NCBI GenBank assembly: GCA_029859385.1 | Contig: JAOUDF010000003.1 | Location: 1 to 37,221, forward strand | Reading direction: 5' to 3' | DNA length: 37,221 nucleotides | Source: Nitrospirota bacterium | GTDB lineage: Bacteria > Nitrospirota > JAOUDF01 | Shown: positions 1-4,773 of the stretch, piece after piece | Layout: each line of letters begins with the position of its first letter | Numbering within the stretch: position 1 is the first letter of the stretch | Notes under the pieces: model-generated | The model's database searches: none | Told to the model about the DNA's origin: nothing | What the model saw: the letters and a program-made list of their open reading frames with translations, nothing else | Made by a program: the position numbers and the translations under genes

Positions 1-505
1 CGACCGATCGATCGGATGGCAAAAGCCTTTTAAAGGCCGGCAACAACTGCTCATAGGTGCTTCTCAGGTGTTGCGGCATGACCCGGACATCGCCCAGCAC
101 CGGCATGAAATTGGTATCGCCGCCCCAGCGCGGCACCACATGAACATGGAGATGATCGGCAACGCCCGCACCCGCAACCTTGCCCAAATTGATACCCACA
201 TTGAAGCCCTGCGGATTCATCGCCTCCCTGATCGCTTCCACCGCCATGCCCGTCACCGCCATCAGCTCCGCCTGGGTCTCGGCATCGAGGGAGGCGATCG
301 ATGCCTTGTGCGCGTAGGGTACCACCATGATATGGCCATTGTTGTAAGGGAAGATGTTCATGATGACGAAGGTGCGCCTGCCGCGCCAGAGGATATAGTT
401 CTCTCCGTCCCGGTCTTCGGCGGGCCGGTCACAGAGAAAGCAGCCATCGGCCTTGATCCCCGTCTCAATATATTCCATGCGCCAGGGCGCCCAGAGCCGC
501 TCCAT
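1..505 (-). CDS. HIT-family hydrolase (Ap4A hydrolase/phosphorylase-like), 3' end runs off the window
   Basis: Translated manually from ATG at 505: MERLWAPWRMEYI..GCFLC..NIFPYNNGHIMVVP..DHLHVHVVPRWGGDTNF, with the HxHxH triad. No stop before position 1, so it is absent from the ORF track. Confidence 0.9.
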   Translation of the reverse strand, partial: MERLWAPWRMEYIETGIKADGCFLCDRPAEDRDGENYILWRGRRTFVIMNIFPYNNGHIMVVPYAHKASIASLDAETQAELMAVTGMAVEAIREAMNPQGFNVGINLGKVAGAGVADHLHVHVVPRWGGDTNFMPVLGDVRVMPQHLRSTYEQLLPAFKRLLPSDRSV

Positions 506-517
506 CTTACCGTCTCC

Positions 518-1027
518 CTAGCCACCCCAGGCCATTTTGGAATAGGCTTCCGTCAGCTGTTCGCGGTATTCCTTGAAGAACTTCTCGTGGCTCTTCTCCC
601 ACCGGGCCAGCATCAGGAGCGCCATCTTCGCCTCCCCTTCAGCCTTCTCGGCCATCTTTTCGTAGAACTCGCTGAGGTCCTTTTCGATCAACCATGCGGT
701 ATTGAAGACCGCCACATCAGGGACCATCGATTCATACAGGCACTGTTCCAGGAACTCCTTCTTTGCCCGGTCATCGAAATAGTCAGTGGGTTCAAGGGCT
801 ATTTCACGAAGCTTCGAGAGGTCTACTTCTCCCTTGCCCTTCAGATCTTCAAGAATCTGGGTAATGAAGGCAATATGGCGCTTCTCTTCCTCAATCAACG
901 TTTTAAAGGCGCTGACCGCCTCGCCGACACCCATGCGTTGTATTGACGTTTCGAAAAAGGTCATACCCGTCTTTTCCTGGTTGAGCGCATACTCGAATAT
1001 CTTTATGAGGTTTTCGTTGTTTGACAT
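518..1027 (-). CDS. Ferritin-like / rubrerythrin-family diiron protein
   Basis: ALNQE..EEKRH and E..EKSH ExxH-type helices. ATG at 1027 is preceded by AAGGAG. Confidence 0.85.
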   Translation of the reverse strand: MSNNENLIKIFEYALNQEKTGMTFFETSIQRMGVGEAVSAFKTLIEEEKRHIAFITQILEDLKGKGEVDLSKLREIALEPTDYFDDRAKKEFLEQCLYESMVPDVAVFNTAWLIEKDLSEFYEKMAEKAEGEAKMALLMLARWEKSHEKFFKEYREQLTEAYSKMAWGG

Positions 1028-1151
1028 CGCCACTCCTTTCGCTGCTCTTTGAGAAAGATTTACAGAGTCGAAAATACATGTTTTATGAAATTGTATCAAG
1101 AACGAACATCCGGGGATGCTTCAGGATCGGCCAAAACCGATAAACAGACAC

Positions 1152-1185
1152 AAAAAAGGCGCCGAAGGTGACCCTTGCGACGCCT
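1152..1185 (-). terminator. Intrinsic terminator after the nucleotidyltransferase gene
   Basis: On the minus strand, AGGCGTCGCAAGG-GTCA-CCTTCGGCGCCT forms a hairpin followed by a T run. Confidence 0.75.
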
Positions 1186-1232
1186 CACTAATTCTAGAAA
1201 TACAACGGCCGCCAGCCCAGTGGCCGACAACC

Positions 1233-2156
1233 TCAGACAGTAACCTTGCAGACAAATCCTTTCTTTTTCTGGGCAGGGGCCGTTTCAAGCGGGTATGCCA
1301 CACCAAATACCTGCCGCCACTTCTCCTGGGCAAATCCGTCGTACCCCGCGGAGCTGAACTGGATCGCCTCATCCGCCAGTTTCAGCGAACGGGCCGCGAT
1401 ATGCTGGAACTTCCCCTGCGACCAGATATACTGGCCGCTGCCAACCGTCATCATAGTGTCCCGTTCGGGTCTCTCCGCAAGATATTTCATGAAATCGCGA
1501 CACATCCAGTCGTAGTAGAGCACAGACTTGTCCCTGTACCGCCAGTCCTTTATGAAGTTATACGCCAGCGTATCCAGTTGCAGTCCGCCCACAGGAACCG
1601 ACCAGAGGTTCTTCCAGGCCCTCATCATCCGGCAGAGCCACTTGAGGTTGCCGTTGGTCTGGCTGCTCATGGCGGCGATGGTCTCTATCTCCGCCTTCGG
1701 GTGCGTCGTTTTCCAGCTCCCTCCCAGGTTGGCGTCGGGACAGGTATAGCTGCCGTCCTTGTTGAGGAAGGCAGGCACTATCTCGAAGGCCACGCCATCG
1801 GGATAGCTGATGACGACAGCCTGTCCATTGGCGCCAATCCTGGCATTGGGGAATGTCTTCTGAAGAGACGCCTGTACATCGAGCAGAAGGGAGAACTGCC
1901 CGTTGGGTTTCATGGAGGCGTATCGCTCATAGCTTTCATCGGGAAGACAGAAGATCATATCAAGGTCGATACAGCCGCGAATGGCAGTACCCCTTCCGTA
2001 CGATCCGGTGCAGAGGCTGTGGGCGGTCCTTGAATCCACCCCGCGAAAATCGGCATTGAGGCGCCGCACAACAAGGTGATACCGCTGCAGCAGGCCCTCC
2101 CGGTTATCGATAACCAGCCTGCCGCAAAATTCCCTGAAATCATCGCCTGCGCCCAC
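1233..2156 (-). CDS. SMODS-domain / cGAS-DncV-like nucleotidyltransferase (CD-NTase)
   Basis: Motifs GSYGRGTAIxxxDLD, FEIVPAF, PDANLGGSWKTTHP, LKWLCRMMRAWK and KWRQVFG are typical of bacterial CD-NTases. The likely start is GTG at 2156, preceded by GGGAGG. Confidence 0.85.
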   Translation of the reverse strand: MGAGDDFREFCGRLVIDNREGLLQRYHLVVRRLNADFRGVDSRTAHSLCTGSYGRGTAIRGCIDLDMIFCLPDESYERYASMKPNGQFSLLLDVQASLQKTFPNARIGANGQAVVISYPDGVAFEIVPAFLNKDGSYTCPDANLGGSWKTTHPKAEIETIAAMSSQTNGNLKWLCRMMRAWKNLWSVPVGGLQLDTLAYNFIKDWRYRDKSVLYYDWMCRDFMKYLAERPERDTMMTVGSGQYIWSQGKFQHIAARSLKLADEAIQFSSAGYDGFAQEKWRQVFGVAYPLETAPAQKKKGFVCKVTV

Positions 2157-2231
2157 AGTCTTCCTCCCGTCATCAAACTCGTTAAAGCCTTCCGGGCGAC
2201 AACCGCCCGAAAGAGTATCTGTAACGAGTAG

Positions 2232-2248
2232 AGCAACAGGAGTGCCAG
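2232..2248 (-). promoter_or_regulatory. Sigma54 (RpoN) -24/-12 promoter upstream of the CD-NTase gene
   Basis: Minus strand CTGGCACTCCTGTTGCT fits TGGCAC-N5-TTGC with exact GG-N10-GC spacing, about 75 bp upstream of the start codon. Confidence 0.75.
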
Positions 2249-2272
2249 ACGGCGGAACTGGGTAACCAACTG

Positions 2273-2309
2273 AAAAATAATGGGCCGCCCCCCTTCCGGG
2301 GATCGGCCC
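2273..2309 (-). terminator. Probable intrinsic terminator of msrAB
   Basis: GGGCCG-ATCCCC-GGAA-GGGGGG-CGGCCC GC-rich hairpin followed by ATTATTTTT. Confidence 0.55.
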
Positions 2310-2369: not shown

Positions 2370-3443
2370 TTATTTGAACAACCGCTGATATTCGCCATAG
2401 CCCTCCTTTTCCAGCGCGTCTTTCGGGATAAAACGGAGGGCGGCCGAGTTGATGCAGTAACGCAGCCCTGCGGGCTGAGGACCATCGTTGAAGAGATGAC
2501 CGAGGTGCGAGTCGCCGCGGGCGCTCCTTACTTCAGTCCGCACCGTAAAGAGGGAACGGTCTGCCTTCTCCACCATATTCCCCGCTTCGAGGGGCTTGGT
2601 AAAGCTCGGCCATCCCGTCCCCGAGTCGAACTTGTCGGTGGAGGCAAAGAGCGGCTCGCCGGAAACGACGTCAACATAGATACCCTCCTTCTTATTGTCC
2701 CAGTATTCGTTGTCGAAAGGGGGTTCGGTGCCGTTCTCCTGGGTCACTTTATATTGCAGCGGGGTAAGTTTCGATTTCAGCTCTTCCCTGCCCATCTTTT
2801 TCCCTTCAGGATGCCCGCCCCAGGTCTTTTTCAGAAACTGGTCCCGCCCCGAGTTATACCGGTAATACTTGTAACGAACCGGGTTCCTCTTATGGTAGTC
2901 CTGGTGATAATCTTCGGCCCGATAGAACGTCGACGCCTTGATAATCTCCGTTGCAATCGGCTTGTTGAAGACCCCTGATTTACCCAAGGCAGCCTTTGAC
3001 TCCTCCGCCAGCCGCCGTTGCTCGTCGCTATGGTAGAAGATCGCCGACCTGTACTGACCTCCCCTGTCAACAAACGACCCACCCGCATCGGTGGGGTCGA
3101 TCTGCCGCCAGAAGACATCGAGAAGTTGCGCGTACGTCACCTTCGCCGGGTCATAGACCACCTCTATCGACTCCAGATGCCCGGTCCTCCCCGACGAAAC
3201 CTCATCATAGGCAGGGTTATCCTTATGACCGCCGGTGTAGCCGGAGATCACCTCCATGACGCCATCGAGCTTCTCAAAGGGGGGCTCCATGCACCAGAAG
3301 CAGCCCCCGGCAAAGGTGGCCTTTTCATATCTTTCAGGAACAGTCTTCATGGAATCAACCCTCTTGTTTTCATTGCTTTCAATATTGGTGCAGCCGCCAA
3401 GGATTGCGACAAATACCAGAAGTGTAAAAATCCATATTCTCAT
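2370..3443 (-). CDS. msrAB: Bifunctional peptide-methionine sulfoxide reductase MsrA/MsrB with lipoprotein signal
   Basis: MsrA motifs GGCFWC and AEDYHQDY. MsrB motifs [18 protein letters not shown] and RYCINS. N-terminal hydrophobic stretch ending LGGC (lipobox). Confidence 0.95.
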
Positions 3444-3608
3444 GCCTATCTCACCCCATGGATTACCTTACCTATAAATATATCATCATTCCCCAATATC
3501 TCGTCCGAGTATGGATATAAGATATTCGCGATCTCTGGGGGGAGTATCCAATAAAGCCAACAGAGTCCATCTGTTATTACGTCGGCGGTTAAACAAGTGA
3601 AACATCCT

Positions 3609-3671
3609 GTCATGCCCGAGTGATTCTATCGGGCATCCAGTGGTATGAATTCCCGCTTTCCCGGAAACGAC
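3609..3671. repeat. Degenerate GTCA..TGAC-type REP-like palindromic element
   Basis: GTCATGCCCGA-GTGATTCTA-TCGGGCATCCAG followed by GAATTCCCGCTTTCCCGGAAACGAC. Same architecture as 12264-12365. Confidence 0.55.
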
Positions 3672-4086
3672 GTCCTTTCAGTATTTTATTGCCGCAGCAA
3701 TAACAACAAACCACTCCCAATGAAACGACAATCATTTTCCGCATAAAGCGTATATAGCCGTCACAACACCACAAGCTAACATTCAGAAACCTCAAAAATA
3801 TCTCTTCCATCTTCAATCATGTATCGCAAAAAAAACTTACTAAATCAAACTCTTGACGGCAAACTACTGATGTATTAATTTTTTTAAATCTTTTACCGTC
3901 TCGTCGTCGCGTGCGGCAACTATCAGTGAGACAGTTGATATTGCACTGTATTAACCGCGAGATGGAGCGTGTCATTGGAGAAGGCTCGAAGGCTTCTCGA
4001 TCAGCAAACATCTTTAGAAACCCAAGATAAGTTAGCCACAACTATCTATTGGTTTTAACTATACAAACAACCAAGGAGGAGAAACC

Positions 4087-4773
4087 GTGAACAAATGTTT
4101 ATTGTTGGCAGCGATAGTGGTGCTTGGTATATCGAATATAGCCCATGCTGATCTGATCAATCGGGGCGGCGGTACATCAGCCCACGGCACATATAACCTG
4201 ATCTACGACACCGACCGCAACATCACATGGTATGACTACACCAATTCACAGGACACTTGGTGGAATCAGGTAGACTGGGCATCGAACCTGTCGGTCACAT
4301 TTGATGGCCAGACGTTTATCAACTGGCGCCTGCCGGAGACGGTAGACGGCGTTTATTCCTATAAATATAAATATGACAGTAGCGCCACCGCCGGCTTCAA
4401 CATTACCAGTAGCGAGCTTGGCCACCTGTATTACACAGAGCTTGGGAACTTGGGTATGTACGATACAAACGGACATCCTCGCGCTGCCGGAACTTACGGC
4501 CTTATAAACAGCGCCCCCTTCCAGAACTTGCTTTCTAACTCCTATTGGTCGGGCACGGAGCACGCGCTCACGCTTACTCCTGACGCGTGGATATTCTCTA
4601 CTTCTTTCGGTAACCAGTATATATACACGCAGGGCCTCTACTTACACGCTTTGGCTGTGCATGATGGCGATGTTGCAGCCGCGCCGCTGCCCGCGCCGGA
4701 ACCCACTACTTGGCTGCTGCTGGGAAGCGGTCTTGTCGGCTTGGTGGCATTTAGGAAGGTGATCAATCGTTAG
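4087..4773 (+). CDS. PEP-CTERM sorting domain surface protein (DUF1566/Lcl-like core)
   Basis: Signal peptide, core WRLP..SELGHLYY..YWSGT, and C-terminal APEP-TM-RK motif (APEPTTWLLLGSGLVGLVAFRK). AAGGAGG RBS before the GTG start. Confidence 0.9.
   Translation: MNKCLLLAAIVVLGISNIAHADLINRGGGTSAHGTYNLIYDTDRNITWYDYTNSQDTWWNQVDWASNLSVTFDGQTFINWRLPETVDGVYSYKYKYDSSATAGFNITSSELGHLYYTELGNLGMYDTNGHPRAAGTYGLINSAPFQNLLSNSYWSGTEHALTLTPDAWIFSTSFGNQYIYTQGLYLHALAVHDGDVAAAPLPAPEPTTWLLLGSGLVGLVAFRKVINR

Follow-up and report, generated by a model that had tools for sequence, protein, structure and literature searches.

Nucleotidyltransferases of the cGAS/DncV-like kind (CD-NTases) normally sit in operons of systems for antiphage signalling by cyclic oligonucleotides (CBASS), beside an effector such as a SLATT or other transmembrane (TM) protein, a phospholipase, Cap4 or TIR-STING. 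The EcCdnF04-SLATT6 operon, a type I CBASS of the CD-NTase plus SLATT (two-transmembrane, 2TM) kind, has been tested with phages (bioRxiv 10.1101/2023.05.21.541620). Here we analysed a CD-NTase gene in the window, by which we mean the whole 37,221-bp stretch of DNA examined. The window is an entire contig (C174) of a 2.78-Mb metagenome-assembled genome of a Nitrospirota bacterium (373 contigs, 95.9% complete, 5.6% contamination). Compared with type I CBASS of the CD-NTase plus SLATT kind, the window cyclase is of the same family, length, catalytic residues and fold, whereas it has no effector at its locus and none was found in the assembly. Its relative at 61% identity (locus L002, protein P0004) stands in a two-gene arrangement with SLATT_4, as in type I CBASS. 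The explanation we prefer, and to which we give an even chance, is that the window gene descends from a type I CBASS cyclase, no longer has an effector, and has been retained by selection with sigma54 driving it. The gene and its parts are as follows.

1233-2156, minus strand: CD-NTase (SMODS) gene, 307 aa, GTG start at 2156, TGA stop at 1233-1235 (open reading frame, profiles and alignment)
2161-2168, minus strand: Shine-Dalgarno-like GGGAGGAA, 4 nt before the GTG (read from the sequence)
1236-1286, minus strand: codons of a 17-residue C-terminal tail (residues 291-307) that is absent from canonical members (alignment)

The Pfam SMODS profile (PF18144) matched the protein with 118.1 bits against a cut-off of 26.5 (E-value 5.8e-34, model positions 5-161 of 164), and the PADLOC cyclase profile PDLC00786 matched it over its full length (E 1.6e-106). 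The NCBIfam equivalog CBASS_cyclase_b (NF041117) gave 100.7 bits, below its cut-off of 200. In an alignment of 28 rows, the catalytic set of polymerase-beta (pol-beta) enzymes was present, with G51, S52, D64 and D66 invariant and E125 near-invariant. In the alignment with CdnD, E125 pairs with the Asp of VDAVPAF, and the FE(I/V)VPAF strand aligns with the CdnD strand bearing the third catalytic Asp. The AlphaFold2 (AF2) model, built from 28 sequences, had a pLDDT of 90.3 and a pTM of 0.86 and was confident except for residues 293-307; the C-terminal tail was predicted to be disordered (pLDDT <50). The top Foldseek matches were all CD-NTases (CdnD, CdnB, CdnC, CdnE and DncV), the best being CdnD of Pseudomonas aeruginosa (6p82, TM-score 0.75, 23% identity), and CdnD was also the best match by sequence (E 5.8e-8). 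The protein is a CD-NTase with a CD-NTase fold, not a generic pol-beta nucleotidyltransferase, and by descent it is clearly a CBASS-type cyclase.

The family alignment begins at the residue encoded by the GTG at 2156, and the GGGAGGAA ribosome-binding site is compatible with the translated upstream region of P0002, the closest homologue described below. A longer frame from a TTG at 2318 was rejected as the gene start because all family members start at the GTG position and because the extra 54 codons diverge like non-coding DNA.

To place the missing effector in context, we examined the neighbourhoods of the CD-NTase family, which comprised 1117 proteins at E<=0.001. The sample was 160 homologous loci (80 from genomes and 80 from metagenomes, 45-61% identical to the query), in which every reading frame was scored with a profile built from downstream neighbours. 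Some of these loci are duplicates of one contig (e.g. L029/L116, L047/L126 and L010/L011), which makes the number of independent loci somewhat smaller. The best identity among loci with context was 61% in the genome scan and 56% in the metagenome scan. The neighbours were distributed as follows.

151 of 160 loci: adjacent SLATT_4 gene, downstream and usually overlapping the cyclase stop in 150, upstream in one (L042)
4 of 160 loci: SLATT_6-type gene about 80-110 nt upstream (L018, L026, L066 and L094)
1 of 160 loci: 170-aa unclassified membrane protein with only a sub-threshold SLATT_1 match (L049)
4 of 160 loci: contig end within 33 bp of the cyclase, uninformative (L048, L085, L140 and L163)

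The SLATT_4 assignment was checked by Pfam on three examples (E 5e-53 to 5e-72), and the SLATT_6 assignment on L018 and L066 (E about 3e-62 to 3e-64), with L026 and L094 judged alike by eye. The results showed that a SLATT-type gene adjoins the cyclase in 155 of the 156 informative loci, all at 61% identity or less, and that no pair is split. The family tree does not follow taxonomy, as is expected for mobile defence genes. Within one tight clade, effectors have been swapped, an upstream SLATT_6 replacing the downstream SLATT_4; L066 (SLATT_6) and L073 (SLATT_4) carry sister cyclases (SH-aLRT 99).

At the window locus, no effector adjoined the gene and no SLATT profile matched. Across the assembly, SLATT_1-6, SAVED and the Cap4 nuclease gave nothing above cut-off (patatin, TIR/STING, NucC and Cap15 were not searched); the best SLATT match, to SLATT_2, reached 11.9 bits and contained internal stops. 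Two custom profiles and one single-sequence query against the six-frame open reading frames of the genome gave best E-values of 0.6-2.3. No second SMODS gene was found in the assembly. The 130-200 bp that follow the cyclase stop hold no detectable effector remnant, and among the flanking genes HORMA/Trip13 and Cap2 partners were likewise not seen. Because the defining effector is missing, the locus is not a CBASS system. The absence of an adjoining effector had been reported by the first-pass annotation, made from the sequence alone, and holds. That annotation had also taken an adjacent effector in close relatives as the mark of a recent deletion; relatives do keep one at the family level, in the loci counted above.

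Only two homologues were closer to the window protein (P0001) than 61%, namely P0002 (88% identity, on a 2315-bp contig) and P0003 (75%, on a 1361-bp contig). Together with P0017 (52%, 305 aa), which like these two is a metagenomic protein, they form a supported clade with the window protein (SH-aLRT 98-99) on a long stem, and the nearest neighbours of this subclade are the SLATT_4-linked L002/P0004. The C-terminal extension is present in these four proteins and absent in the other 24 aligned members. In P0001, P0002 and P0003 the open reading frame is intact, all catalytic residues are kept, and the tail motif KGFVCKV is identical. After KGFVCKV the three proteins end in TV, AA or VA; that this short hydrophobic C-terminus might serve as a tag recognised by a protease, or as some other short linear motif, is pure conjecture. 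In the window's protein, about 18 of the 93 family-conserved positions carry replacements, and the changes in the subclade include S63 (to I/N, beside D64), D110 to N in the GxDGQ strand, W235 and K253.

To assess constraint, we compared the subclade members with one another. Between P0001 and P0003, 10 of 100 conserved columns differ, as do 67 of 206 variable ones, and where P0001-P0003 diverge from one another they tend to spare the columns conserved in the family (odds ratio 0.35-0.40, p about 1e-3). Within the subclade, constraint has loosened without disappearing. The annotated P0002 protein carries a 76-residue N-terminal extension, which is the translation of its upstream DNA. This extension can be aligned, across one 3-codon indel, to the window's own in-frame translation of the spacer between the cyclase and the upstream msrAB gene, as far as the msrAB stop region; therefore the 88% homologue shares the msrAB-cyclase intergenic region. 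Counting only the nucleotide positions that are fixed by P0002 amino acids, 30 of 102 positions differed between P0001 and P0002 in the 159 nt upstream, compared with 40 of 547 in the coding sequence (odds ratio 0.19, Fisher p 5e-9). Since the split from P0002, the CD-NTase protein has been held about four times tighter than the adjoining non-coding DNA.

The signals around the gene were identified by consensus matching and folding.

2232-2247, minus strand: sigma54 -24/-12 element TGGCACTCCTGTTGCT, TGGCAC-N5-TTGCT (consensus match; predicted transcription start near 2220)
2190-2213 (about), minus strand: leader hairpin with a 10-bp stem in the minimum-free-energy fold, in the predicted 5' untranslated region
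2273-2309, minus strand: terminator-like hairpin after msrAB, -24.4 kcal/mol, z -2.8, followed by U-rich AUUAUUUUU
1207-1232, minus strand: GC-rich hairpin directly after the stop, -19.1 kcal/mol, z -2.5
about 1148-1186, minus strand: strong intrinsic terminator, hairpin plus U6, -22 kcal/mol, z -4.4

The sigma54 motif and the start codon are 75 nt apart, the motif being upstream and in the same orientation, and TGGCACTCCTGTTGCT is the sole perfect TGGCAC-N5-TTGCW in the window (0.04 expected; a match in 4 of 100 shuffles). The genome holds 9 perfect sites compared with about 2.8 expected from composition, and the 8 others are all upstream of co-oriented open reading frames. The genes behind them include a flagellar rod gene (flgF/G-like), an ammonium transporter gene (amt) and genes for a PEP-CTERM and a CheW-DnaJ protein, and another perfect site precedes an hsp20 gene adjoining an activator gene. 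Several of these genes are classic sigma54 targets, and for this reason a perfect site in this organism is probably functional; the predicted one before the CD-NTase gene is very probably a real promoter. Sigma54 promoters require an enhancer-binding activator. The genome encodes rpoN (Sigma54_DBD, 1.3e-64, on contig C43) and has 21 Sigma54_activat matches, none of them on the CD-NTase contig.

We then compared the promoter region across homologues. In the upstream region of P0002, all 7 of the 7 determinable consensus positions are kept while the spacer has a forced change, with an estimated chance probability of about 0.09, so that conservation of the motif between the two sequences is suggestive only. 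Among the canonical family loci, a perfect site in the 300 nt upstream occurs in 0 of 152 and a one-mismatch site in 2 of 152; the sigma54 site is not a family trait. The two loci with one mismatch, L156 and L157, are canonical cyclase plus SLATT_4 pairs with TGGCATCTGTGTTGCT 144 nt upstream of the cyclase start, and in some organism sigma54 may thus drive an intact CBASS of this family as well.

None of 200 shuffles folded as well as the terminator at 1148-1186. The hairpin at 2273-2309 was missed by a simple terminator scan. With these predicted signals on both sides, the CD-NTase gene reads as a standalone transcription unit, its neighbours lying in separate putative units. The flanking terminators and the consensus sigma54 site had been part of the first-pass annotation, as had the 307-aa SMODS/CD-NTase gene itself, the msrAB and ferritin-like neighbours and a host-like base composition, and all of them were confirmed by the profile, folding and composition analyses given here. 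Its leader hairpin fared less evenly, since the 10-bp stem is present but the leader overall folds no better than shuffles (z -1.2, not significant); so did conservation of the sigma54 motif in orthologues, a check that the annotation had proposed, which holds for the readable positions of P0002 but not for the canonical loci.

No known RNA family matched the leader or the spacers, the one match having 21.5 bits against a cut-off of 75 bits. An 11-nt segment, 10/11 identical, is common to the post-stop hairpin (1222-1232) and the leader hairpin (2194-2204), which may be chance. The only open reading frame in the 3' spacer (1096-1230, minus strand, 44 codons) starts 3 nt past the cyclase stop, has two short hydrophobic stretches, spans both terminator hairpins and has no SLATT profile match; it is probably not a gene.

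To describe the setting of the gene, we annotated its neighbours, the CD-NTase gene itself lying 1.2 kb from the contig end.

2370-3443, minus strand: MsrA/MsrB fusion (msrAB), a bifunctional methionine sulfoxide reductase, upstream neighbour, with a lipoprotein-like N-terminus (Pfam PMSR 4.4e-63, SelR 1.4e-47; NCBIfam)
518-1027, minus strand: rubrerythrin/ferritin-like gene, 169 aa, downstream neighbour (Pfam Rubrerythrin 1.7e-11)
2-505, minus strand: HIT-family gene, ATP adenylyltransferase-like, running off the contig end (Pfam HIT 6.6e-14)

Because the rest of the contig carries genes for ClpB, AspRS, GuaA, GuaB, SelA, a 2-oxoacid dehydrogenase E2 and an NFACT protein, the setting of the CD-NTase gene is core chromosome and not a defence island. 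The GC content over the gene (0.55-0.57) is like that of the flanks and the genome (0.56), and no direct repeats that would mark a mobile insertion were found flanking it beyond short, chance-level ones. The best named relatives of the contig's AspRS are Nitrospirota metagenome-assembled genomes at 74% identity. Since the 60 nearest genomes compared are all related at phylum level only, the host is a deep, uncultured lineage. A synteny test for insertion was uninformative, as the rubrerythrin-like neighbour had no match at E<=1e-10 in these 60 genomes.

The rubrerythrin-like gene has a putative promoter of its own, a sigma70-like match at 1071-1099 in the promoter scan. Many homologues of its product at about 70% identity bear the name rubrerythrin; closer ones at 90, 83 and 79% identity lie on contigs of 3142, 1861 and 13478 bp, none of which could be tied to the contig of P0002. 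A further protein, P0241, is identical to the product of 518-1027 and lies on a 47,400-bp contig, longer than the window; the left end of the window is therefore probably exceeded in a second assembly of this organism. The HIT gene scored 169.7 bits with NCBIfam NF052622, under the cut-off of 290. On the other side of msrAB, an AT-rich stretch of about 640 bp without a long open reading frame (3450-4090, GC 0.42) separates it from a 228-aa protein gene (4087-4773, plus strand), whose product has no Pfam match at 1e-5 and a C-terminus resembling a PEP-CTERM sorting signal.

Ten public sequencing runs match part of the window's first 5 kb, and one of them is a sediment metatranscriptome covering 52% of sampled words. 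Its contigs over the locus are listed below.

1225-2253: whole cyclase gene, leader and promoter; 1029 nt, depth 11.8, 3 differences
2235-2833: msrAB; 599 nt, depth 14.9
2818-3440: msrAB; 627 nt, of which 623 aligned, depth 14.6
130-881: HIT and rubrerythrin-like genes; 915 nt, depth 4.0

The CD-NTase gene is apparently present in the RNA library; neither the start and end of a transcript nor its strand can be read from assembled contigs, and DNA may be present in an RNA library. The three variants in the 1225-2253 contig, two synonymous and one N200S, are too few for inference. Several stretches are uncovered in this run while genes are covered (e.g. 1003-1169 and 3675-4175), which is evidence neither of transcript ends nor of a library free of DNA. 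In a DNA run of a second study, contigs span 1863-2649 and independently confirm the msrAB-cyclase junction.

Our preferred explanation starts from a two-gene type I CBASS ancestor, a cyclase with a SLATT 2TM membrane effector, from which the effector would have been lost; in an uncultured Nitrospirota-like sediment bacterium, the CD-NTase would live on in the core chromosome as a transcription unit of one gene. A non-adjacent enhancer-binding protein would activate sigma54-RNA polymerase at the -24/-12 element. The transcript would carry a 5' untranslated region of about 65 nt and end at the hairpins past the stop. As judged from its family, the enzyme with its GS/DxD/E set would make a cyclic di- or trinucleotide from NTPs. 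Because the family's usual SLATT pore is missing and would not be available to this signal, the signal would be read by an unrecognised receptor or have no downstream consequence. An enhancer-binding protein of the RtcR/CARF type, an alternative receptor, was not found in the genome. The sole cyclic-dinucleotide-sensing element found in the genome is a GEMM-I (c-di-GMP-I) riboswitch (contig C290, 1684-1766; L165, 1501-1583; 59.6 bits, the gathering score being 35), which precedes the gene of a secreted subtilisin-like protease, and no evidence ties it to the CD-NTase product.

The intact reading frame and catalytic residues in three lineages, the constraint test, the tail, the promoter, the ribosome-binding site, the terminator and the core setting fit retention under selection, which we favour over neutral decay only modestly. 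A "domesticated" cyclase is plausible, and the purifying selection, the shared derived tail and the housekeeping context fit it. We consider it rather unlikely that this uncultured Nitrospirota-like lineage went as far as to take a CBASS cyclase out of defence and make it an inducible synthase of a host second messenger with a new kind of receptor; the loss of the pore partner, the KGFVCKV tail, the altered active-site-adjacent residues, the sigma54 promoter and the oxidative-stress neighbours would be the components of such a change.

Plain decay of a broken system is a serious rival, and we regard it as possible, at well under an even chance. It would mean that a type I CBASS gained by horizontal transfer lost its toxic SLATT gene by deletion, leaving a functionless, as yet unbroken cyclase with an incidental sigma54 site. 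Several findings weigh against a selected, sigma54-driven gene, and some of them favour this neutral remnant directly. Of the 93 columns with >=95% conservation in 157 canonical members, P0001-P0003 retain 74-76, compared with 87-93 in the canonical members themselves. The share of conserved columns that differ between P0001 and P0003 is 10%, whereas canonical pairs of like divergence average 2.4% (maximum 12.8%), so that the subclade is about fourfold more variable at family-conserved positions. These relaxed columns could mark decay rather than a new role, and partial relaxation also fits a slowly decaying remnant. In P0017, Arg replaces the third catalytic Glu (FEIVP to FRIVP, on a very long branch of 0.97); by its sequence it is probably an inactive cousin. 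No CD-NTase homologue was found in the 60 same-phylum genomes, so the gene is not ancient in the phylum. Some of the constraint measured here may stem from a lineage in which the effector was still present. With regard to expression, no enhancer-binding protein gene adjoins the CD-NTase gene, and the conservation of the motif in P0002 is weak evidence. The RNA-library contig extends 6 nt beyond the -24 element and overlaps the msrAB contig; because it passes this element, read-through from msrAB or DNA carry-over is possible. With an assembly only 95.9% complete and in 373 contigs, the effector is not found rather than proven absent. A neutral remnant, however, does not account well for an intact reading frame with all catalytic residues in P0001, P0002 and P0003, for a coding sequence about four times less changed than the adjacent non-coding DNA (p 5e-9), for a KGFVCKV motif kept across homologues of 75-88% identity, or for a dedicated high-quality promoter, ribosome-binding site and terminator. 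Past the stop, no SLATT remnant was detectable either.

A split or unrecognised CBASS, still serving defence with its effector on unassembled DNA or of a type outside the profiles used, is improbable in our judgement. The fragmented assembly with its 5.6% contamination, the position of the gene 1.2 kb from the contig end and an effector search that covered some classes only leave room for it. However, none of the informative family loci is split and 155 of 156 have the SLATT-type effector next to the cyclase; the six SLATT Pfam families, SAVED and the Cap4 nuclease gave nothing above cut-off, the three custom six-frame searches did no better, and both flanks are housekeeping genes with terminators between. 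The first-pass annotation had offered an effector elsewhere in the genome as one of its readings, and the searches of the 95.9%-complete assembly gave it no support. We think it very improbable that the protein is no signalling cyclase at all and instead a pol-beta nucleotidyltransferase modifying protein or RNA, for example in an oxidative-stress context. The replacements by the active site (S63 to I/N beside D64, and D110 to N in GxDGQ, a motif that is otherwise invariant) and the neighbouring genes for MsrAB, a rubrerythrin-like protein and a HIT/Ap4A-type enzyme would suit such a role, but the protein shares full-length homology of 50-61% with effector-coupled cyclases, has the CD-NTase fold with a complete catalytic triad, and has no functional link to the neighbours, which occupy separate putative transcription units. 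The same alternative, raised earlier as a condition under which the signalling reading would fail, was not borne out, homology and fold being those of a CD-NTase.

In the literature covered here, a bacterial CD-NTase is presented as half of a defence pair of the suicide type, and a member without the killer gene stands out. The window gene is a candidate for cyclic-oligonucleotide signalling in a role other than abortive infection. If the second-messenger reading is true, bacteria would offer a counterpart to the way in which eukaryotes have repeatedly recruited cGAS-like enzymes. If the gene is inert, it documents the non-toxic half of a CBASS lingering after the toxic half was lost, and such lingering cyclases matter for counting "defence systems" from cyclase hits alone.

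Compared with canonical CBASS loci, the window gene has the 17-residue C-terminal tail, replacements at about 18 of the 93 conserved positions, a housekeeping chromosomal setting and a sigma54-type promoter. Its best match among characterised enzymes is CdnD, whose members from P. aeruginosa (6p82, 6p8u and 6p8j) and Enterobacter (7ljl) are cyclic trinucleotide synthases of type III/II CBASS; the structures superpose with an rmsd of 3.6-3.7 A, but the identity is only 21-24%, and the HORMA/Trip13 and Cap2 genes were not seen beside the window gene. A TIR-SAVED effector works without its cyclase and reads a host c-di-AMP signal (bioRxiv 10.1101/2025.06.19.660554). This stand-alone effector is a precedent for CBASS parts functioning outside a complete operon, and it is the mirror image of the window gene, an effector without a cyclase as opposed to a cyclase without an effector. 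Our literature search found no description of a standalone bacterial CD-NTase or of its sigma54 control, and supplementary CBASS catalogues may list such genes. What is unusual here in comparison with these systems is the combination: a family strictly coupled to effectors, a constrained orphan bearing a tail, a core-genome setting, and an activator-dependent promoter shared with the 88% homologue.

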